From positions 19,468,001-19,532,000 of the forward strand of contig OZ231126.1 in the NCBI GenBank assembly GCA_965153355.1: a DNA stretch of 64,000 nt, in the 5' to 3' direction. Position 1 is the first letter of the stretch, and each line of letters opens with the position of its first letter. A program made the position numbers and the translations under genes. Source of the DNA: Flaccisagitta enflata. Taxonomy: Eukaryota. The notes beneath the pieces are model-generated. The model saw only the letters and a program-made list of their open reading frames with translations. It did not search any database and was not told where the DNA came from. This document shows, one piece after another, positions 1,958 to 42,477 of the stretch.

Positions 1958-3335
1958 AATCGCGTGCACGTGACGCAATTACCCGCTATATCTGTCGGTC
2001 AGTCGGTCACGCCAGTCACACTTTGCATTTTTTGATGCTTACGGACATTTTTTTTGCATCACCGCTCCTGACCAAATGTTTGGTTGGCCGAGGCAGTGAC
2101 AACCAGCGGTCCACCCTGGTTTCTTTTACTTCCCTTTTCTGTCTCTTCCTACCTCCCAGCATCCTTTCCATCCCCTTTACCTCTTCCGCCGCCACTACCT
2201 CTGCCTCTACCTACCCTTTGACATCCTTTCCATTCCCTTAACCTCTTCTGCCAACAACTATACTGCCTCTACCTATCCTCATTTATCCTTTCTACCCCCT
2301 ACACCTCTTCCGCCGCTGCCGCTAGTGCCGCTACCTACCCCAAATCATGCCCCTATACCACTTCCGCCGCCGCCGCTAGTGCCGCTACCTACTCCATACC
2401 ATGCCCATACACCTCCTCCGCCGCTGCCGCTACTGCCTCTACTTACCCAAAATCATACCTGTATACCTCTTCCGCCGCCGCTGCTAGTGCCGCTACCTAC
2501 CCCAAATCAAGCCCCTACACTCTCTGCGCGCCGCCGCTAGTGCCGCTACCTACCATACCATGCTCCTACACCTCCGCCAGTGCTGCTACTACCTAGCCCA
2601 AATTATGCCCCTATACCTTCCGCTGCCGCTACTGCCGCTACCTATCCTAAATTATGCCCCTTCAACTCTACCGCCGCTAGTGCCGCTACACTACGACCGT
2701 GCCTTACACCTCCGCCGCTGCCGCTAGTGCCGCTCCACCCCATATAATTCCTGGACACCTCTTCCACCACCGCCACTAGTGCCGCTACTGACACTGGAAT
2801 TTTTTTTTTTTACAAGATGTATCCAAGGTAGCGGCAATAGCGGCAGCGGCGGAAGAGGTTTAGGGGGTTTCTATCTCTACCTCTGCTTCCTCTACCTACC
2901 CGATTAGCATCCTCCTACATCTCTTCCGCCGCCGCCTCTATTGCCGCCGCCTCTATTGCCGCTACCTTTAGTAGCGGCAGTAGCGGCAGCGGCGAAAGAG
3001 GTCTAGGGGCATGACATGGAGCAGGTAGCGGCAATAGAGGCGACGGCGGAAGAGGTAGGAGGATGAGAGGAGCTTAGTAGCGGCAGCAGAGGCGACGGCG
3101 GAAGAATTGTATGAGAATGGAGGGTGAAAGGTAGCGGAACAAGAGGCTTGGGCAGAGGATTTATAGGAGGATGAAAGAGGGAGGGAAGAAGAGGGAGGAG
3201 CGGCAATAGAGGTACCTCTTTTGGGCAGGGTCTAGGGCAGGAATAGGGCCTTTGTTTGGACGGCTGACTGTCATAGTCTGGGTTGGCCTATTTCATCACT
3301 GCCCCCATCCAACCGTGTATCCGTCCTTGTTTTTT
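1958..3335. mobile_element. HINE-like element carrying a GC-rich tandem array (about 50-bp unit) that is partly inverted
   Basis: Starts with the CGCGTGCACGTG hairpin and (GTCG)n; ends CCGTGTATCCGTCCTTGTTT like the other family A copies. Internal CCTCTTCCGCCGCCGCTAGTGCCGCTACC units at 2180-2790, reversed at about 2825-3210. Confidence 0.6.
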
Positions 3336-3579
3336 TTTGCAACGTTCGCTGAATATCACGGTTGAATGAAGCACATGTCTTGTTTTGGATCTCAAATTTA
3401 TATATTTATGCTATACATTGTATTTCAACAACATCTTCGTTTCATGATTGCAAAGGCATTTTTTTTTCTTTCTGTCAGTAGCCAAATGCAAATAGATATT
3501 TGGTGATATCCACAGGCTTACATTCAATAGGTGTTAGGAAAAAAGAGAACCAGAGTCGCACGGAAAATCATCAAAACAA

Positions 3580-4208
3580 TTATGAAAATAAAATGTTAAC
3601 AAAAACAGCCTCTCTTTCACCTTTGCCATTCACTCCACCTAAGCAAGCAACAGGCAAGTTTCTTGTACCGCCATTTATGACGACTGCGCGATGATTGGAT
3701 AACTCTCGATCTAAAGGATCTGCATCGGTCCATTCTTCCTTTTCCACGTTTAATATCTTCATCTTGAGAGATGCGCCTTCCCTATTCTTGCCACCGACGA
3801 GTAACAAATGATTCCCAGAAATGGGCGTCAACGAATGACGATACACTCCTTTCCCGCCTTCATGACCCCACAAAGAGCTTCCATCAACTTCCATTGGGAA
3901 GCCGGTGTTATGAAGTCTTCTCCATTTCCGCGTATTCATGTTCAGTTCGAAGAAGTCATTCAAGCATCGGTAGTTTTGACCGAGGCCGCTATGAACGTAG
4001 ACTCTTTCCTTGAGAATGGCGATGCCGTAAGAATGACGACTCTTCGGTTTGGGTCCGGAAGTGAAGAATTGCGAGAACCGGTTGGACTTTGGGTCGTATT
4101 GATGAACTTGGACGGTTTTCCATTCCCACAAACTCGACTCTCCCAGCAAGAATATTTTGCCTTCGTGACACCATGCTTTGTGCGGGAGTCTAGCCAGAAC
4201 CTTATCGC
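3580..4208 (-). CDS. Exon 3 (last) of the papain-like/3TM/mucin/Kelch gene: KLHDC-type Kelch repeats
   Basis: Acceptor TTTGCATCTATCAG|GC, phase 1, giving PKG-DKVLAR. Kelch motifs GPKPKSRHSY, VYVHSG...LNDFFELNMNTRKW, RHSLTPISGNHLLLVGG and CLGG; stop at 3580-3582. Confidence 0.85.
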
Positions 4209-4361
4209 CTGATAGATGCAAACATAAATTGTTGACAAAGAGTCATATTCATATTTGCGATTCGGTTTTATTCCGACTCGATTTTACTTTTTCATTCGAC
4301 AAATACAAAAATTAGCGTAAGCATAGCGCCTTGTATTAGGTATTCAAAGTGGCCCGAGTTA

Positions 4362-5267
4362 CCGTATTTTTTTTCTAATTAGCGCCCCGGGCGCTTTTGA
4401 AATTGAAATATAATTTTGTTTTTTAACCCTCCTTTGCAATTTAGATGAACTGTCATTCAGTCCATTTTTTCATGAGAGGCTATCAAATGCTGAATTTGAC
4501 TGGAAATATTCATTGCATATATCTGATAGAAAGTCACTGAAAATGGTTAATTGCGTCTTGTTATTTTATCATTTTACTCAATATATCTGCTCAAATCTCT
4601 TCTGAATATTGTAACACAAAAAATAGTCGCAAAAGTGTTAGATGGTCAGCGGTACCCGTGCCCTGCCTAAGTAGGTTGTGGACGAAGTTGAGGGGGGAGC
4701 AGGGCAGCAGCCCCGAAGGGGTCGATGATCGATGCATTCACACAGGGGAATTTTCTCTTTCTCCTCCTTCTCCTCCTTCTCCGTCCGTTCCCCTCCCCTC
4801 AAATCCCAGTCTCGAGGCCCAAATTCCAGTCTCGAGGCCTCAATCCCAGGCTTGAGGCCCAAATCCCAGCCTCAAGGCCCAAATCCTAGCCTCAAGGCCT
4901 AAATCAGAGCCTGGAGGCTGAGATTTGGGCCTTAAGGCGGGGATCTGGGCCTCTTGGCTGAGATTTTGACCTTGAGGCTGAGATTTGGGCTTCAAGACTG
5001 AAATCTGAGCCTCCAGGCTAGGATTTAGGCCTTGAGGCTAGGATTTGGGCCTTGAGGCTGGGATTTGGGCCTCAAGACTGGGATTTGGGCCTCGAGACTG
5101 GAATTTGGGCCTCGAGACTGAAATTTGAGGGGGCGGGTACGGACGTAGGAGGAGGAGAAGGAGAAAATTCCCCTGTGTGAAAGCATAGGTCATGGACCCC
5201 TTCGGGGCCGCTGCCCAAAAGGGGGGGCCGGTAATTGGAGGGGGGGCGCTAAATGGAAAAAATATGG
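4362..5267. mobile_element. pogo/Tigger-like MITE (TA TSD) in intron 2, with a nested family B element
   Basis: TA|CCGTATTTTTTTTCTAATTAGCGCCCC ... GGGGCGCTAAATGGAAAAAATATGG|TA. Confidence 0.75.
4621..5220 (-). mobile_element. HINE-like family B element with two opposed 21-bp tandem arrays
   Basis: AATAGTCGCAAAAG end, subterminal inverted GGCAGC.GCCCCGAAGGGG / CCCCTTCGGGGCCGCTGCCC, and (GGCCCAAATCCCAGCCTCAAG)n arrays in opposite orientations. Close copies at 29550-30142 and 34410-35018. Confidence 0.7.
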
Positions 5268-5344
5268 TAGTTGTATTGCACTGCTTTGTCAACATCCATT
5301 TCCCTACAACGTGGCATAAATCATTAATTATGCATCTTACTAAC

Positions 5345-5749
5345 CTTTGGGCAAGAATCTCTTAAATAGTCCATCCGAAGAAAGAGTAAACACGTAATCG
5401 ATTTTCTTGACATTGCCTTCGTTGGGACTCCATTTGTTACCGCCGAGGATGTAAAGGACGCCGTCGCAGACCCTCGACGCCGCGCCCAAGATGCCGTTGA
5501 CGTGAATGTCGCCGCGAGTCGGCAAAAGTCTGATTCGATGACGAAGATCTTCGACTTGGCGTTGATCCGATGAAAATTCGTTGTCGTTGTTGTTGAGCTT
5601 CAATGACCAAAAGTAGGTTCCAAATTCCGATTCTGGTTCGGAGGCGTCTCTGACGCCGCCCCACGCTATCAGAGTGTCGTTGAAAACTTCCACGATTCCA
5701 TGTCGATTGATGGGGAAACGAGGCCAAATGGAATGGGTTATGGTGGGAT
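5345..5749 (-). CDS. Exon 2 of the papain-like/3TM/mucin/Kelch gene: first Kelch repeats
   Basis: Acceptor TTTTTGTTGCTTCAG|AT and donor G|GTTAGT; 405 nt, phase 1-1. Motifs RHGIVEVFNDTLIAWGG and DGVLYILGG. Confidence 0.85.
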
Positions 5750-5910
5750 CTGAAGCAACAAAAAGGTTTGTATAGATTTGAGTGGACATCAGGGTTAATT
5801 CTAAATCTTTTTTTTTAAATGACATTTTTCAATGTATACATAGAAAAAAGAAGAAGGTGGACACCGGACAGGCGGACTGACTTAGAGACAGTCAATATAG
5901 TTCGGCTCAC

Positions 5911-8125
5911 CAGGAATGCCTGGTGTTATGGTAGTCACCGTTCCCACATCTGATGTAACTGAAAGGGTTGTTGTCGTGCCATCAACGCTGTTTTGAGTGA
6001 CACCAGCAAATGATGTGTTGCCGATTGCCATGGTGTAGGTCTTGTATGTTGGATCACCCTGAAACGGTGTGACCGTGACCGCCTGTGCTTCTGTAGTAGC
6101 CGCTGGAAATTTGTTTGGTAAACTTGAGGAGGTTGAATATTCCATTGTAGTAGATGTTGTGGCCTCACTTTGTTGAGAGGTTGTTTTAAAAAGGGTTGAA
6201 TCAACAATGTAGCTAGCTGAGACTGATTTCGCAGTTGTATTTGGCAATATTGTGACAGTTGTAATGGTTGTATCGGAATTGTCAACAACCTGATAGGTTG
6301 AAGCCACAGTGTTTGTGTTTGCTTCAAATGTCCTATTCTCAACCGCAGTGGCCAATGATGATAGCGTTGATGTTGTCACAATATTTGCTTCAGAAGCTGA
6401 TGATGACTTATCTATTCCTTTTGTCGCGATGGAAACCGATGGTACTGTCAAACCGTCAACAACAACGGGTGATGATGTTTCATGTGCTGCCGCTGTTGCG
6501 GCTGCATTTGGTGTGCTGTGAATCGATGCACCGATCAATTCGCCAATAGATTCGGTTGCGAACGTGTTTGTCGTTAAAATTGCACGTGTGTTGGTCGTTT
6601 TTCCGGTGGTAGTCTCTAAAGAAACCGATGCCATAGTGGACTTTGTGGTGAACTTCAAGTTCAAATGATTAAATCCTTGGCTTAAATCTGTCGCTGTCAT
6701 GGTCGAAGTGGTGAAATTTTCATGAGTCATATTCCTCGAGCTTGTATCCCTAAGTGCCATCAACGTTGGCATCAAGATGGGTTGCATGCTAATGGAAACG
6801 ATGAGGAAGAGAAAAGCTACAAGCACTGAAGCGATTGAGACACAGGAACAGACGCTACAAGATCTAGTCCAGCAGCGGAGCTTGAACAGACATCGGGACA
6901 CGGCTGGATGGAGGGAACCGAGAACGAAAATCAGGGACAAAACGGCAGAGATTGACAAGGACATTGCCAAACTGTGAATGTTGGTCCAACTATTTGGAAG
7001 GAACAATGACAAAATCACGAAAAGCGTCAGGGAAACCAAGACAGATAAAGTGCAAGAGAGAAAAAGCGACCACCGCGTCGAAGATTTGCGCAATGGAATG
7101 GCATCTGTGACATATTTCGCCGGATTAGGAAAAGGCACCGACGCGAATCGTTGCCACAAATTGCTGGCAAATTGCTGGCAATTGGAATTGGTGAGATGGT
7201 ATTTTTCCTTCAGCTCTCCTTCGTCGTGGAGCCATCGAATGACGTCTTTGAACGTGACGCCGTCTTTTGGTTTCGAGTCGGTCGTCACTTTCATCATCGT
7301 CGAAAGTCGTTTGCGCCGCTTCCGGTTTTGAAACTCTTTGACGACCGTCGATCGGTCCGTCGACGACGCTGATGCGGATGACGCTGATGTGGTTGATGGC
7401 GATGCCGTTGTAGGAGAAGACGATGATCCCGATGAAGGCGATGATGACGACGGTGACGACGACGGTGACGTTGGTGAAGAAGTTGATGACGAAGATGGAG
7501 ATGACGATAACGTCGTTGTGTTCGACGAGGATGACGACAGTGACAACGGTGAAGACATTGATGACGAAGATGGAGATGATGATAATGTTGTTGTCGTCGA
7601 CGGTGATGACGATAGTGACGTTGGTGATGATGGTGAAGATGTTGAAGATGTTGATAATGCAGATGGAGATGATTCCGATGAAGGTAATGTGGATAATGAT
7701 GGAGACGATGATGACAACGCTGACAACGGTGAAGACGTTGATAACGAAGATGGAGATGACGATAACGTCGTTGTCGTCGATGATGATGACGACGCTGACA
7801 ATGACGTAGAAGTCAACGACGAATTCGTCGACTGAACCAAGATGCAAGACGGTAGTTTTTCGATGCTGAACGCGTCGCCATTTTCCGTCTTCGCGATGAC
7901 AATGTGATGAGTCAACAGATTCTTGAAATAGGCGCAGTTGACGGCCAACGAAATCTGAAACGCCGTCAATTCGACGATTTTGACGTTCATCGAAGGGAAA
8001 TTGACGAGGTTTGAGTCTGGGCCGATGTCGAAGTAGTCACAATGAGAGGCCACTTGTCCATCGCCCACGTAGTCGATGTGGGTCAACTGGGACAACCAAG
8101 ATTCGCCGCGCAGAGAATCGCTCAT
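5911..8125 (-). CDS. Exon 1 of an approximately 1082-aa membrane protein: permuted papain-like (PPPDE/LRAT-type) domain with Ser-rich insert, 3 TM helices and Thr/Ser mucin stalk
   Basis: ACCATG at 8125. HHIVIAKTENGDAFSIEK...YHLTNSNCQQFA gives a His then an NC motif. Three hydrophobic stretches at about 6775-7073; T/S-rich region with NMT, NFT, NRT, NTT and NTS sequons. Donor CCTG|GTGAGC (phase 1) joins exon 2 in frame. Start codon not certain. Confidence 0.8.
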
Positions 8126-8127
8126 GG

Positions 8128-8249
<122 letters not shown>

Positions 8250-9039
8250 GGTAGTGGTGGTGGTGGTGGTGGTGGGGATGGTAAGGGTGGTGTTTTTGTT
8301 ATTGTTGTTGTTTGTTTTTTTCTAAAAGAATGATATCGTGATCGCTCTTTTGCGGGTACAATTACCAAATAGGCCGAATACCAGAGATATCCGCGACATA
8401 ACGGAACTTTTCCAAACCCATTATGAAAGTGGCTCTAAAAATTGAGCAATCGAGAGAAAAAGGTGTCATCGGGTTTTCCGTTAACAAAGATTATACCAGT
8501 AACCAGTTTTGAAATAATTACATTTTTCGATGCGTCCTCGCATCTCTATGATAGGCTGTGTCCGTTGGTCGGTTGATCGGTCGGTCGGTTGGTTGGTCGG
8601 TAACGCGTTCATTAAAAACATCAAAATCAAGCATTTTTTCAACAGAAAAGTGGTTCTGACCCAGAAAAAGAAGCATACATCAAGTAATTCATTCATTCAA
8701 TCATTTATTCATTCACAAATGACATTCATTCTTAAAAAAAAACATTCATTCATAAAAAAACTTTCATTCAAAGAGGACGCATCGTTGGCCTTGTTAGTAA
8801 CCAACTTTGGGGAATTTTGGAATGACGAAATTGAACTCTGACTGAGATGCTATGAGTGCGTTGCCTGGGAAAGGTCATGGCTAAATGTTGTGATAAAGTG
8901 GGCAGCAGCCGAACTCGCCATAAGCCCAGAAAAGCAAATCATGGGCTACATAAGGAACGGACCGTCGAACTGAAAAGTACACAAGTAACACGGGGTTACA
9001 ATAACGTTGCAGACGGGGGGCAGGGGCGAAAAATCGCGT

Positions 9040-31474: not shown

Positions 31475-31586
31475 AAGAAAGGAAAAAAAGAAAGGAAAAA
31501 AAGATAGATAGGTAGATCTAGGTAGATAGATTCCCATCAATATTCCCCATCTACCCGAACATTTCCGTCAACTTCTCCGATCTTAC

Positions 31587-32883
31587 CAAATGCGTAAATT
31601 CCATCACGGACTCTTATCCCGAGGCCCAACGTGTTGTGAATCTCGACAAAATCGTTGAAATAGTCCCTTCCCGTCGCGGATCTGTATTCCTCCGCCGCTC
31701 GGACAAAGTTTCTCCATTTCTCCGGCCAATCGTCTTCGAAGGCGAACACTTGCAGATGCGGATGCATCTGAGAAGCGCCGGCCGAGGGCGACGAGTCCAT
31801 CGTCAAAACGCGACGCAGCCGTTGTCTCTGTCGACGAGGCATTGCAGATCTCGAGGCGGTGTTGGAAGAAGTTACTGTAGCGTCGGCTTCTCGAAACCAT
31901 CGAATCGCCGTTTCGGCCATTCTTCGGAAATCGGAGCGATCGAGATCGACGATAGAATGCTGATTGGCGAAGACGAGTCCGTGGAATCGAGTGGCGGGGA
32001 AAGCGTTACCAGATGACGCCGCCGCGAAAAGGTCTTCCTCGACGCTAACTGGTTTCTTACTGTAACCGGAAGAATCTGCTTGGGCCGCTAAAACTCTCGT
32101 TCTTTTATCAACGGAGGGTGAGGATGAAGTTGCGAACGCCCATCTTTTCCTCTTCTTCTTTCTCTTCCGCTTCTTCCTCTTTTGAGTTTCTGCAGCTGCA
32201 ACGCTCTTCACAACTTCTCCGTTGAACTCCGAGATGATCACGTGACCGCCGTTTGACTTTAGGAAAGCGTTTCCGACAGTTTCCGAGCGGAACCGGCAGA
32301 AGGGGCAATTCTCCGCCGAAGCGTAAGCCAAGGATCTCAGTTTCGAGGCTTCGCTGTTGTCGTCGTCGTTTTCCGTCCCCGGCCGCTTACCCCGCAGCGC
32401 GTTCCACGAAGCTTCTTCCTTCGTCCATTTGTTACGCACGCGGACGATGCGCTGTCGAGAAGCGGAAGCGGCTGCGGAAGCGACGTCTTTGGCGCGGAAC
32501 CACGTGGCGTATAACCGCGCCATTGACGGCGGGACCAACGAATTGGCGTACAGCGATTCAACTTCAAATATGGAGGAGATCAATTTGCAGGTCAAGGAGC
32601 AAGAAGAAGAAGAAGAAGAAGAAGAAGAAGAAGAAGAAGAAGAAGAAGAAGAAGAAGAAGAAGAAGAAGAAGAAGAAGAAAAAGAAGAAGACATGAATTG
32701 GCTTAAATTAGAGAGGCTACTGATATTGGAGAGGGAGTCACAAGGTTTAAGAGAGATGACACGATGATATTCAAGTGAAGAAAGGCGTCGACTCTTCCTC
32801 AGGGGCCGCGGCTGCGACTGCAATTGCTGTTGCAACGGCGGGTGCTGCTGCTGCGACTGTGGCTGCTGTTTCGTCAATTTCAT
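31587..32883 (-). CDS. Main exon of a GalT/HIT-superfamily nucleotidyltransferase-like protein
   Basis: RGKRP, CPFC (Zn-ligand-like) and AGASQMHPHLQ (HxHxQ) motifs; donor TTTG|GTAAGA. A pyrimidine-rich CCCAG acceptor 30 nt upstream of the ATG is in frame, so an upstream exon is possible. Confidence 0.8.
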
Positions 32884-33407
32884 CGTCTTGGGCGGAATGA
32901 TTTCCCGTATATGCTGGGATATGGTGAAATGATAATGGAGTGAACGAATGAGTATTGAGTAAATGAAAAAACAAATAAATGAATGAATGAGCTCTTAATT
33001 CATGTGTAAGCGACTCAAGAGATTTGTCGGTCGGTCAATCGGTCTATCTCTGTCAGCCTGTCAGTCGTTAGCTTTTTTTAACTGTGAGTAAAAGAATAAA
33101 TGTCATTATGAAAGATTGATTGTAGCACGGCAGTGGGATGAAGAGAAAGAAACCGAGACTAAGCCAAGCCAAAGAAAAGGAGGAATAGAGGAAGACGCGA
33201 GCGATTTTCAGGAAAGAATTTTGTTCAAAGAATGATAGCACAGCTCCATAATGCTTACTTTGTTCCGCACTATGTGCTGATCATAGATGAACATCTTGAC
33301 CATTAAAATCGGAAATAGGCTCAAAATCAAAAGGATGCCGGCGGCCGAGCGTGCGTTGAATAACATGCTGTAAGCAGATTGAGATCCTTAGACAATATCG
33401 GTGAGAC

Positions 33408-37412: not shown

Positions 37413-38086
37413 AGAAGCTAACTAGGTCAGGTTTGGTTAAGTTAGGATAGGGACTTACTAGGTTAGGTTTTGCTGCGGATTTTTCACCAGCCATCTATCA
37501 CCATCCGTTCAAACTACCGTCAGGTGGTTTTCAGTATTACTCTGGATTTTCCGCTTGTTTGCACTCAATATGGACCTCCTGAACAAGAATCCAGCTTCAA
37601 AAAATCTTTTTTGTGGCGCCTTTTGAAAAAAATCCAAAATTGATTGTTTTTTCTCTTATTTTGAAATCAGAATTTTAGGGCTGTTAGTAGAGGGGTCAAA
37701 CGCTAATTTGCATAATTTTGTCACATCAATTTTTCTTTTCATTTCCTTTTGTTCACATTGCTACTAGTCATTTGCGACAATTTTCGAGCCATGAGACCAT
37801 ATATACTGCTCTGTAAACAATGGGGTGAAAATGACACATGCACTGGTTTTCCTGCCTGGCATGACATGTGAGGTAGAATGCCACTAAAAATTACCAAAAG
37901 TGCTTAAAACTTGTTCAAATATGTAAGTTAGTGTAGAATACATAAATTTTCACAGTCTAATTCATTTTTCCATGATCCCAAGTATGAACATGGTGAATAA
38001 CCATTTCTATTTAAGGAGCCAGTTTGGTATTCTTCAAGATATTCCTGACGTCTTTTGTTTTCAAGTCTTTTTAAAAGGCTTTTTAT

Positions 38087-38172
38087 TTAGGGTTAGTGGT
38101 GAGGTTAGGGTTAGGGATGGGTTAGGGGATGGTTTTAGGGTTAGGGTTAGGGATAGGGCTGGCGTTAGGGCT
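38087..38172 (+). repeat. Degenerate interstitial (TTAGGG)n repeat
   Basis: About 14 TTAGGG-like units seen directly. Confidence 0.75.
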
Positions 38173-38839
38173 AGTGGAGGATTTTTTTTATCTATAACTG
38201 CCGAAATATGGTCGAATATAAGCTTTGTCCAAGCGGGATATTCGAGGCCAGATACAATGGGACAGTCACGGACGGTTGGGCAGGAGCAGTAAAGCGAAAA
38301 CCGCCCGGAATTCAAAAATGTGACAGACCGACGGGCCGACAGACCGACAGACCGACAGGCCGACAGACCGACGGGCAGACAGACCAATGGACCTACCAAT
38401 CGACACGGCAAGGTGTAGAGTCGCTTGTCAACGACTAAAAACAAATGACACAATATGCTTGAACATCGCCCCAAGTTCTTTAAGTTTTTTTTCATTTCTG
38501 TGAAAGAAAATTGCATTTCGTTAACAAGCCAGGCTGGATGCACGGCTTCCCCAGTTGCATGCAAGTGAGAGGGTCAGTGACTGAGGTCACTGAAGCATTT
38601 GGGCAGGAGCGGTGAATGTATAAACGCCAAAAAATAAAAAAAAGAGGATGGCTTTGAGTTGAGTCACATAGCACCTGTCTAAAAGGGAGGTTAATTGCGG
38701 TTTGTCATTTCACGTACTAGCAACTCTAAAAGAAGTTTTTTCTGTCTGTCCATCTGTCTATTCCTCTGTCCATCAGTCCATCCGTAACGAATAAGTCAAA
38801 AATGATAATGTGCATTTGAGATGCCGAGCGTTCAAATAA

Positions 38840-41042: not shown

Positions 41043-41626
41043 CAGGGGCGTATTTGAGCCCAAATTTTAGGGGCAGCAAGCCAAAATCTGTGTCCCAACA
41101 AGTCTCGTGTCCCAATAATTTGGATAATTGTGCAATTATTGTTACTAATTGATATTGCTTTTTAATGTAAGTATTGTGTTGTTGTATAAAATGTTTAAAG
41201 AATAAACAAGCCCATATATTTAAAGAATAAACAAGCCCAAGGATGATGCTTTGTCATATGACATTTGTCACATTTGGAGCATTGTACTTTTCGCCTCTTG
41301 GGGGTAAAACAGAATCGTTTCTATCAGACATTTTTAAAAGGAATTTCTATTTTTTGGTGAAAAATTAGAAATGAGAAATGATTTAGATCAATATGGTTGA
41401 TGAAGAAGGTCGAGGGGATCAACCTAGGCAACTAAATGAATGGCCGAGGGGATGAATAGGCTCTGTATATCAATTCTATAAAACCCCATTGTACTACAGC
41501 TGGAAACATTTCAAACGTATTTCTCTCTCCCTCTCTCTCTCTCTCTTTTAGTGTCCCGATGGGGTTTGTGCCCCAACAAAAAGGGCAGCAGCTGCTGCCC
41601 CTGACGCCCCTTTGAATACGCCCCTG
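41043..41626. mobile_element. hAT-type MITE, second copy
   Basis: TCTATACC|CAGGGGCGTATT ... AATACGCCCCTG|TCTATACC. Confidence 0.9.
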
Positions 41627-42477
41627 TCTATACCTGTTCCATTTTAGTTCCTGAATTCTAGTTCCTGAATCATAAAGATACAGAAACAAGGCCGGACACA
41701 CGGCTACCCCAGTCGCGTGCGGGTGGGCAGGGGCCATAATTGAGGTCACCAGATCATTTGAGCAGGAGCAGTGAGGCCAAAAACCGCAAAACCCCCCAAA
41801 AAAGTAAAGTGTGACGGACCAACGGACGGACCAACGGACCGACAAAGCGGGGTGTAGAGTCGCGTAGAACGCGACTAAAAATAATAGAAAAGCTGCGCAC
41901 AACACCTATTCATGCACTTCAGTAGTTATGTGATAACCATCGCTATGTAAAAGAAAATTGTAATTAAGCAGATTGCGCAGAGTTGCTATTCTAGGGAGTA
42001 GGGGATTCTCCTTGGCAGAGCTCTCTGTGGCTTTTCTTTTTCTCCTTTTCATCAGGAACCCATGGCTTTGACATCAATCAACCAAAGATCTGAAGCAAAA
42101 AAGCTTCAAAATTACAGTCCCCGACTGGGGACTGTAATTTTTGAAGCTTTCTCATTGCGTAAACGCAACTCGATGAGATACACAACAAGACAGCCATTTC
42201 AAGAAAAAAAAATATTCAATATTGTTTTAATGATGACATAACTTGATAATGATAACAATAGTGGGTGATGATGATGACAACAATGAATGACAATGACAAA
42301 AATCTAATAAAAAATTTTCAAAAAAATTTTCAAAAAAAAAAAAATTTCAAACAAATTTTCAAAAAAAAATTTCAAAAAAAATTTCAAAAGGAAAATTTCA
42401 AAAAAAATTTTCAAAAAATTTTCAAAAAATTTTTTAAAAATTTTCAAAAAGAATTTTCAAAAAAATTAAGAAGTCAA

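Follow-up and report, generated by a model that had tools for sequence, protein, structure and literature searches.

A 64,000-nt stretch of the Flaccisagitta enflata genome (contig OZ231126.1; hereafter the window, i.e. the whole stretch that was analysed) carries on its minus strand, between positions 8125 and 3580, three open reading frames (ORFs), the first of which encodes a divergent circularly permuted NlpC/P60 (PPPDE-like) domain followed by three transmembrane (TM) helices. As judged from sequence comparison, the domain is a member of a sizeable unnamed family, one that is real but absent from the domain libraries, and the solid result of our analysis is the existence of this divergent PPPDE-like family, which comprises soluble forms, forms with a three-TM anchor and forms that bear an ectodomain. 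The other two ORFs encode a predicted Kelch propeller, and its fusion to the anchored enzyme is plausible from the sequence and would have an unusual, receptor-like layout. We lean towards the view that the locus holds one three-exon gene for a protein of about 1082 residues, in which a cytosolic PPPDE-like enzyme would be connected via the three-TM anchor to a Thr/Ser-rich (T/S-rich) linker and a six-bladed Kelch propeller on the far side of the membrane. All coordinates of gene parts (exons, introns, domains and TM helices) refer to the minus strand, and residues are counted from the ATG at 8125.

An unnamed family of PPPDE-like proteins

The N-terminal domain is encoded in two parts that are separated by an insertion:

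7826..8125, minus strand: PPPDE-like domain, first part (residues 1-100), with the beta-hairpin G..W...L....Y and a beta-sheet that carries His73/His74 (7904-7909), Glu89 (7859-7861) and Lys90
7340..7825, minus strand: Ser/Thr/Pro-rich insertion (residues 101-262, 71% Ser plus Thr) in the loop between the domain halves, predicted to be disordered in the AlphaFold2 (AF2) model
7106..7339, minus strand: PPPDE-like domain, second part (residues 263-340), with Arg271, Tyr309 (7199-7201), Cys316 (7178-7180) and the motif NCQxF..LW....(F/Y)PNP

An exhaustive HMMER search (phmmer, residues 265-470 as the query) of 1.84 billion representatives recovered 55 representatives at E<=0.001, 15 of them at E<=1e-10. 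In the 20 clusters that were looked up, every member comes from an ENA or Logan assembly, where it is unnamed and lies on a contig of 0.5-3.2 kb. Most members of the family are soluble and about 200-230 residues long. In an alignment of 39 sequences the window residues 1-100 and 263-340 match across the whole domain at 24-43% identity, and the N-terminal beta-hairpin G..W...L....Y is specific to this family. Cys316, Tyr309, Arg271 and Phe319 are each found in 39/39 sequences, and nearly the same holds for Lys90 (38/38), Asn315 (38/39), Gln317 (37/39) and Glu89 (36/38), followed by His73 (34/37) and His74 (27/38). Since Met1 of the window protein lines up with the homologues' own N-termini, we take 8125 to be the probable true start.

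The domain libraries recognize the family only faintly. Peptidase_C97 (PF05903) gives weak matches at E<=0.1 in 33 of the 39 aligned members (best 1.8e-8), with all 14 scores that were examined lying under the Pfam cut-off, and LRAT (PF04970) gives a weak match in 11/39 relatives (best 1.3e-4, below the cut-off of 24.3). In the window protein itself LRAT has no match at E<=0.1, and the motif reads NCQQF, not NCEHF. Searches by other routes yielded little: with residues 265-470, a word-index protein search among proteins of 405-1292 residues returned nothing and a comparison with the ESM Atlas gave no usable match; with residues 1-100, phmmer returned nothing from the PDB sequences; and the family profile picked up HRASLS2 alone from the PDB sequences (E 0.79, on the NC motif). 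Among the ESM Atlas clusters that are nearest by features to one homologue, P0001, are one that bears the name 'PPPDE domain-containing protein' and one with PF05903 in 31% of its members; we treat these as leads only.

The insertion sits between the His-bearing sheet and the Cys-bearing helices, is absent from 38/38 aligned homologues and thus unique to this gene, and contains a 75-bp tandem repeat (7458-7627). A hidden intron was considered and rejected: there is no GTRAG donor in 7340-7825 and the GT sites present are poor donors. The insertion is accordingly treated as putatively coding; its open frame carries little weight, since either strand offers several open frames there.

Two observations concern more distant or smaller members. 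In six of the soluble relatives (P0007, P0009, P0011, P0015, P0034 and P0038) a Cys lies within the final five residues, and these terminal Cys residues might be lipidated and thereby bring soluble members to membranes too. A metagenome scan produced one distant locus (L001, 266-1072, plus strand) and nothing that bears on the Kelch fusion; the locus lies on a contig with closely packed ORFs and encodes a protein of 268 residues that has a Gly/Ala-rich hydrophobic N-terminal part and ends in ...LLIANCQQFAENIW.... This protein is a distant relative of the family, and the genome it comes from is of another kind (tblastn E 2e-5, across 19 residues only).

Predicted fold and candidate active site

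In the AF2 model of window residues 1-350, 137 residues have a predicted local distance difference test (pLDDT) score of at least 90, and the model places His73/74 on a strand (72-80), Glu89 on another strand (85-90) and Cys316 at the start of a helix (316-327). The model of P0001, which is without the Ser-rich insert, has a pLDDT of 88.6. The models were compared with known structures using VIA-align, which is independent of Foldseek and by whose own scale the top Z values obtained (7-8) are middling. In the wide search with the window model, DeSI-2 (2wp7) was top (Z 7.7, root-mean-square deviation (rmsd) 3.5, 114 residues), further rows being TseH (7.1), CLN5 (5.7), Aichivirus 2A (5.0), PLAAT4 (4.6), YiiX (4.6) and BcPPNE (4.2), and NlpC/P60-type proteins, permuted or canonical, occupied 7 of the 9 top rows. 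For P0001, DeSI-2 was again top (Z 8.0, rmsd 3.3, 115 aligned), with 7 of the 8 top rows of NlpC/P60 type. When the Foldseek top 1000 was re-scored, rows 1-4 were TseH, CLN5 and, twice, Aichivirus 2A (Z 7.1 to 5.2), with the next row at 3.4.

The order of the residues is that of a permuted domain, namely, a His on an early strand and then, late in the chain, a Tyr followed by a Cys at the N-terminus of a helix, as seen in both the alignment and the model. The spacing of the residues likewise resembles that of characterized proteins. For PPPDE1 the active site is described as His38, Tyr101 and Cys108, and for YiiX and BcPPNE as His49/Glu64, i.e. with a spacing of 15 (PMC3142127, PMC9012467). 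In the window protein Tyr309 precedes Cys316 by 7 residues, as Y101 precedes C108 in PPPDE1, and the distance from H73/74 to E89 is 15-16, as in YiiX and BcPPNE. Cys316, His73/74 and Tyr309, with Glu89 as a polar helper, make up the candidate active site, in which the His and the Cys would lie next to each other.

Besides the middling Z values, three points weigh against the assignment: the Peptidase_C97 score of the window protein at the Cys motif (19.3-22.3 bits) is below the gathering cut-off of 29.2; with neither model did Foldseek reach a PDB match at E<=0.001, TseH coming closest (4.8e-3, probability 0.99); and the models of the window protein and P0001 were built on one shared alignment, so that they are not independent. 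The assignment is carried by the agreement of the structural ranking with the weak Pfam matches in the family, i.e. Peptidase_C97 in 33/39 and LRAT in 11/39 members. The papain-like, circularly permuted domain with its His before its Cys, which had been put forward in the initial annotation, is supported by the alignment, these weak matches and the model comparisons alike.

A three-helix anchor behind the enzyme domain

About 15 residues past the enzyme domain begins a membrane anchor, with the following parts:

6998..7069, minus strand: TM1, about residues 353-376, from hydropathy
6914..6970, minus strand: TM2, about residues 386-404, from hydropathy
6848..6913, minus strand: TM2-TM3 loop, basic and rich in Cys (about residues 405-426; 4 Lys/Arg, no Asp/Glu); predicted to be cytosolic
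6785..6847, minus strand: TM3, about residues 427-447, from hydropathy

The hydropathy profile contains no hydrophobic segment before residue 352 and therefore no signal peptide, and Lys plus Arg total 4 ahead of TM1 and 4 in the TM2-TM3 loop, against 0 in the loop from TM1 to TM2. An odd number of TM helices, the lack of a signal peptide and a positive-inside pattern, all as read from hydropathy, are the marks of a type III (N-in/C-out) protein.

A similar three-TM module after the NC motif is found in 5 of the 55 representatives (P0002, P0003, P0004, P0020 and P0046). In P0046 an EGF domain follows directly after TM3 (25.5 bits, cut-off 21.5), and in P0049 the order is an EGF domain, a single TM helix and then the enzyme domain. 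In both proteins the enzyme domain is thus on the opposite side of the membrane from the disulphide-rich EGF domain. This independently backs the view that in the window protein the enzyme domain is cytosolic and the C-terminus exposed. On these grounds, i.e. hydropathy, charge pattern and the analogy with P0046 and P0049, the three helices, the missing signal peptide and the N-in/C-out arrangement that had been predicted at the outset are all supported, and we infer that the enzyme domain is cytosolic.

The stretch 6716-6965 (about residues 387-464, i.e. TM2, the loop and TM3) is weakly similar in sequence to a part of mitochondrial poly(A) polymerases, their PAP-associated region (5a2v, E 0.003; 3pq1, E 0.008). 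This similarity probably reflects chance resemblance between hydrophobic stretches, because there is no Pfam PAP_assoc match and the region is poorly conserved among the relatives.

Gene model

The window has introns, many microsatellites and a G+C content of 32-50%, which is eukaryotic in style, and the gene is of animal type. Its predicted exons and introns are:

5911..8125, minus strand: exon 1, with the ATG at 8125; codes for residues 1-738 and ends with one base of codon 739, its first
5750..5910, minus strand: intron 1, 161 nt, phase 1, GT..AG, CTG|GTGAGC ... TTGCTTCAG|A; an in-frame stop at 5882-5884 if unspliced
5345..5749, minus strand: exon 2, Kelch blades 1 and 2 and the start of blade 3
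4209..5344, minus strand: intron 2, 1136 nt, phase 1, GT..AG, AAG|GTTAGT ... TCTATCAG|G; 20-bp tandem arrays and interspersed repeats
3580..4208, minus strand: exon 3, remainder of blade 3 and blades 4-6; stop codon at 3580-3582

Joining 8125-5911, 5749-5345 and 4208-3580 by script gives an open frame of 1082 codons. The ORFs, both phase-1 GT-AG introns and the frame of 1082 residues are therefore present exactly as the initial annotation claimed, and both motifs to which it drew attention, HHIVI..FSIEK and YHLTNSNCQQFA, occur in the exon-1 translation. The exon-1 ORF runs for 850 codons without a stop, of which 738 are in the gene, including 288 codons of non-repetitive linker; upstream of the ATG it is open to 8434 without any further in-frame ATG. 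The start codon adjoins a plus-strand (GTT)41 microsatellite (8127-8250), which corresponds to poly-Thr in the frame of the gene. The 20-bp tandem arrays in the region of intron 2 (4608-5411) occur in both orientations (4800-4918 and 4909-5120).

Linker and Kelch propeller

Between the anchor and the Kelch exons lies one further segment:

5911..6775, minus strand: T/S-rich linker, residues 451-738; predicted to be extracellular or luminal

The linker consists for 36% of Ser plus Thr and for 4% of Pro, contains 5 N-x-S/T sequons, has no Pfam match and, according to Tandem Repeats Finder, no array in 5911-6775. The earlier description of this segment as a mucin stalk therefore stands as regards its T/S-rich composition and sequons, and falls as regards mucin, given the 4% Pro and the lack of tandem repeats.

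Exon 3 matches Pfam PF24681 with 62.6 bits (cut-off 50) and Kelch_4, Kelch_2, Kelch_3, Kelch_6 and Kelch_1, all above their respective cut-offs; with the Pfam ATRN/LZTR1 propeller model the score, 45.5 bits, falls short of the cut-off (50). Exon 2 alone shows a weak Kelch_2 match (E 0.082). Marked by eye, six blade-like units of 49-69 residues, each with a GG, GE or GL hallmark after a hydrophobic run, are visible across exons 2 and 3, which agrees with the estimate of about six Kelch repeats made beforehand. Blade 1 begins at the first codon of exon 2 and intron 2 falls within blade 3; as the six blades run across both exons, with blade 3 spanning the intron, exons 2 and 3 belong together.

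The closest solved sequences to exon 3 are KLHDC2 and KLHDC10 (E 1.2e-8 and 2.5e-8), and a word-index protein search with exon 3 among longer and near-length proteins found no close Kelch relative. Because identity is low and Kelch families cross-match, KLHDC orthology does not follow; the label 'KLHDC-type' that had been attached to the propeller reflects generic Kelch scores and is overstated.

One gene or two

Exon 1 is probably spliced to the Kelch exons to form a single gene. In the 5.1 kb from 3400 to 8500 the minus strand holds only 4 GTRAG donors, one of which is at 5910, 28 nt ahead of the ORF stop; the acceptor at 5750 follows a tract of 11/13 pyrimidines and then CAG; and the intron phases are compatible across the junction of exons 1 and 2. 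From the site densities we arrive at a rough estimate of 1 in 1000 for the agreement of donor, acceptor and phase by chance. From the exon-1 stop (5882) to the first ATG in the Kelch frame (5825) there are 57 nt, and intron 1 contains neither AATAAA nor ATTAAA.

Several findings count against the join or against the architecture as a whole. For neither junction was a transcript found. None of the 55 relatives exceeds 550 residues and none of the 39 that were scanned has a Kelch domain. In P0002, P0003, P0004 and P0020 the chain stops about 20-30 residues past TM3, from which it follows that the ectodomain is optional in the family and that a protein ending at the 5882 stop would fit the family as well. 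The topology, finally, is based on hydropathy and analogy. An RNA run from the same study (X1; about 6/100 of the run), when compared with 3000-9000, had zero depth on all three exons, which is evidence neither way: 159 of the 159 aligned reads are partial matches to the repeats of intron 2, with loose ends and one joint on the opposite strand (4659/5216), and they point to an interspersed repeat that is transcribed elsewhere in the genome. A literature search on PPPDE or NlpC/P60 in combination with Kelch and a transmembrane protein brought up, among the papers listed and as far as titles and abstracts tell, none about a protein of this kind.

The alternative that best survives is that of two adjacent genes, i.e. 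one for a PPPDE-like domain with the three-TM anchor and a T/S-rich tail that ends at 5882, and a two-exon gene for a cytosolic Kelch protein of about 360-370 residues that starts from the ATG at 5825 or 5789. Its first product would resemble both the three-TM relatives that stop soon after TM3 and P0029, which consists of the domain and a long S/T/Q-rich tail and nothing else; the ORF of exon 2 does have in-frame ATGs upstream of the acceptor; the family has, among the 39 members scanned, no Kelch-bearing relative; and the best solved Kelch relatives, KLHDC10 and KLHDC2 (E about 1e-8), are cytosolic. However, 57 nt between stop and ATG, without AATAAA or ATTAAA, leave little room for a 3' end plus a promoter in an intron-bearing genome, and a consensus-like donor 28 nt before the stop would have to pair by accident with a strong acceptor that lies exactly at blade 1 and in the matching phase. 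We therefore consider two genes to be fairly unlikely, albeit the most serious competitor of the single gene.

A different alternative leaves the single gene intact and places its product in an internal membrane (endoplasmic reticulum, Golgi or endolysosome), such that the Kelch propeller would be luminal and the protein would not be a cell-surface receptor. PLAAT enzymes act on organelle membranes, and the results obtained here would suit the plasma membrane and organelle membranes alike. In addition, CLN5, a PPPDE-like relative, is reported to be lysosomal (PMC9012467). T/S-rich linkers with N-glycan sequons, and an EGF domain as in P0046, would nevertheless be more typical of surface proteins, and we regard an internal location as unlikely. 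It is very improbable that the copy is silent or decaying and gives no stable protein, for instance because it arose recently by exon shuffling or is a pseudogene whose low-complexity parts happen to be open. In favour of such a copy are the several open frames on either strand of the Ser-rich insert and the gene-poor, repeat-rich character of the rest of the window. Against it, the conserved family residues are all intact, 738 codons are open including the 288 of the non-repetitive linker, none of the six Kelch blades is damaged and neither intron breaks the frame.

Relation to known systems

The single-gene protein can be compared with four known systems. The PPPDE/DeSI proteins (DeSI-2, 2wp7; PPPDE1, 3ebq; and, more remotely, CLN5) share with it the early His and late Cys, the Tyr 7 residues before the Cys and the position of the Cys at the N-terminus of a helix, and they provide the best structural match (Z 7.7-8.0) as well as the commonest weak Pfam match of the family (33/39). 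They differ in that the window protein stays under the Pfam cut-off and in that its family has an extra N-terminal beta-hairpin and its own EK and NCQxF..LW....(F/Y)PNP motifs, whereas the spacing from His to Glu is unlike that of PPPDE1 and resembles that of YiiX. Moreover, known DeSI proteins are soluble, whereas the window domain is fused to a three-TM anchor and probably to an ectodomain as well.

In the case of LRAT and the PLAATs (HRASLS), the likeness consists of the layout with an H-box followed by an NC motif, a membrane anchor close behind the catalytic domain and an active site that would be located at the bilayer; LRAT matches 11/39 of the family members weakly in Pfam, and PLAAT4 aligns at Z 4.3-4.6. 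In contrast, the window family has NCQ(Q/H)F instead of NCEHF and a structural score lower than that with DeSI-2, and its anchor has three helices, whereas PLAATs have a single C-terminal helix as membrane anchor.

KLHDC2 and KLHDC10, the best solved sequence matches of exon 3, represent a type of soluble substrate receptor of cullin-RING ligase 2 (CRL2), unlike the window propeller, which would lie beyond a membrane. A Kelch propeller in that position is not without precedent, and its description at the outset as an intracellular-type domain displayed outside is an overstatement, as extracellular Kelch repeats are already known from MEGF8, described as a type I membrane protein that works with the cytosolic E3 ligase MGRN1 (PMC5792066). 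The MEGF8/Attractin-MGRN1 system resembles the proposed protein in that a membrane protein with an outside Kelch beta-propeller is functionally linked to a ubiquitin-system enzyme in the cytosol (PMC5792066). It is a precedent both for Kelch domains outside the cell and for a logic like that of a receptor. It is different in that MEGF8 is type I, has a single TM helix and recruits a separate E3 ligase, whereas in the window protein an enzyme of a different fold would be part of the same chain, joined via three TM helices.

Proposed function and significance

The permuted NlpC/P60 enzymes (DeSI, CLN5, PLAAT, LRAT) are small, mostly soluble or tail-anchored proteins, and their natural substrates are debated. 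In the single-gene protein, the N-terminal domain, with all candidate catalytic residues intact and split by the lineage-specific disordered Ser-rich insertion, would be cytosolic, and the three-helix anchor would keep its active site at the cytosolic face of the membrane, much as PLAAT enzymes are held at the membrane by their tail anchor. The linker and the Kelch propeller would be located outside the cell or in the lumen of an organelle.

As to the activity, DeSI-1/2 have been called deSUMOylases and deubiquitinases and are reported to have S-depalmitoylase activity in vitro as well (PMC9012467). A cysteine-dependent S-depalmitoylase activity has been found in vitro for PPPDE1, PPPDE2 and CLN5 (PMC9012467). 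Our first choice for the membrane-proximal enzyme, which would act on membrane-bound substrates, is therefore a thioesterase or acyl-hydrolase (resembling an S-depalmitoylase or a PLAAT), and our second a ubiquitin/SUMO-type isopeptidase. The Cys cluster in this protein's basic loop next to the membrane may plausibly be S-acylated, and the enzyme domain could handle that site in cis. The Kelch ectodomain would bind a ligand or a glycan and set the location or the clustering of the enzyme, or the ligand to which it responds; signalling across the three helices is speculation. Taken to its full extent, the proposal would be that of a receptor-enzyme of an undescribed kind, in which three TM helices connect a cytosolic PPPDE-like thioesterase or isopeptidase to a glycosylated linker that carries a Kelch propeller outside the cell, in a family with exchangeable ectodomains (none, EGF or Kelch) and with a Cys-rich loop that is perhaps S-acylated and acted upon in cis; this we put forward tentatively, as a possibility that is rather doubtful in its entirety.

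The family fixes a permuted NlpC/P60 domain to the membrane via a conserved three-helix module, sometimes together with an ectodomain, and such fixing would favour membrane-bound substrates. The fusion, if true, would constitute a natural case of such an enzyme coupled to an extracellular binding domain. The family also marks a concrete gap in current domain libraries, as illustrated by the Peptidase_C97 matches at E<=0.1 in most of its members and the sub-cut-off scores in every case examined.

Other features of the window

A search with the family profile (hmmsearch) of the six-frame ORFs of the window finds this gene only, i.e. no paralogue, and the window has no match in Rfam. None of the 68 other ORFs of at least 90 residues scores above a Pfam cut-off, with one weak DUF6033 match at 23144-23527. 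The only other long non-repetitive ORF of the window (31540-32994, minus strand) has 485 codons, with poly-Ser and basic runs, and is without a Pfam match. A recurring ORF fragment (...HPALSVR.SV...APAHPHATGVAV.PALF...) is present at 38064-38573 and 41435-41905 on the minus strand and at 61790-62263 on the plus strand, and represents an interspersed repeat family.

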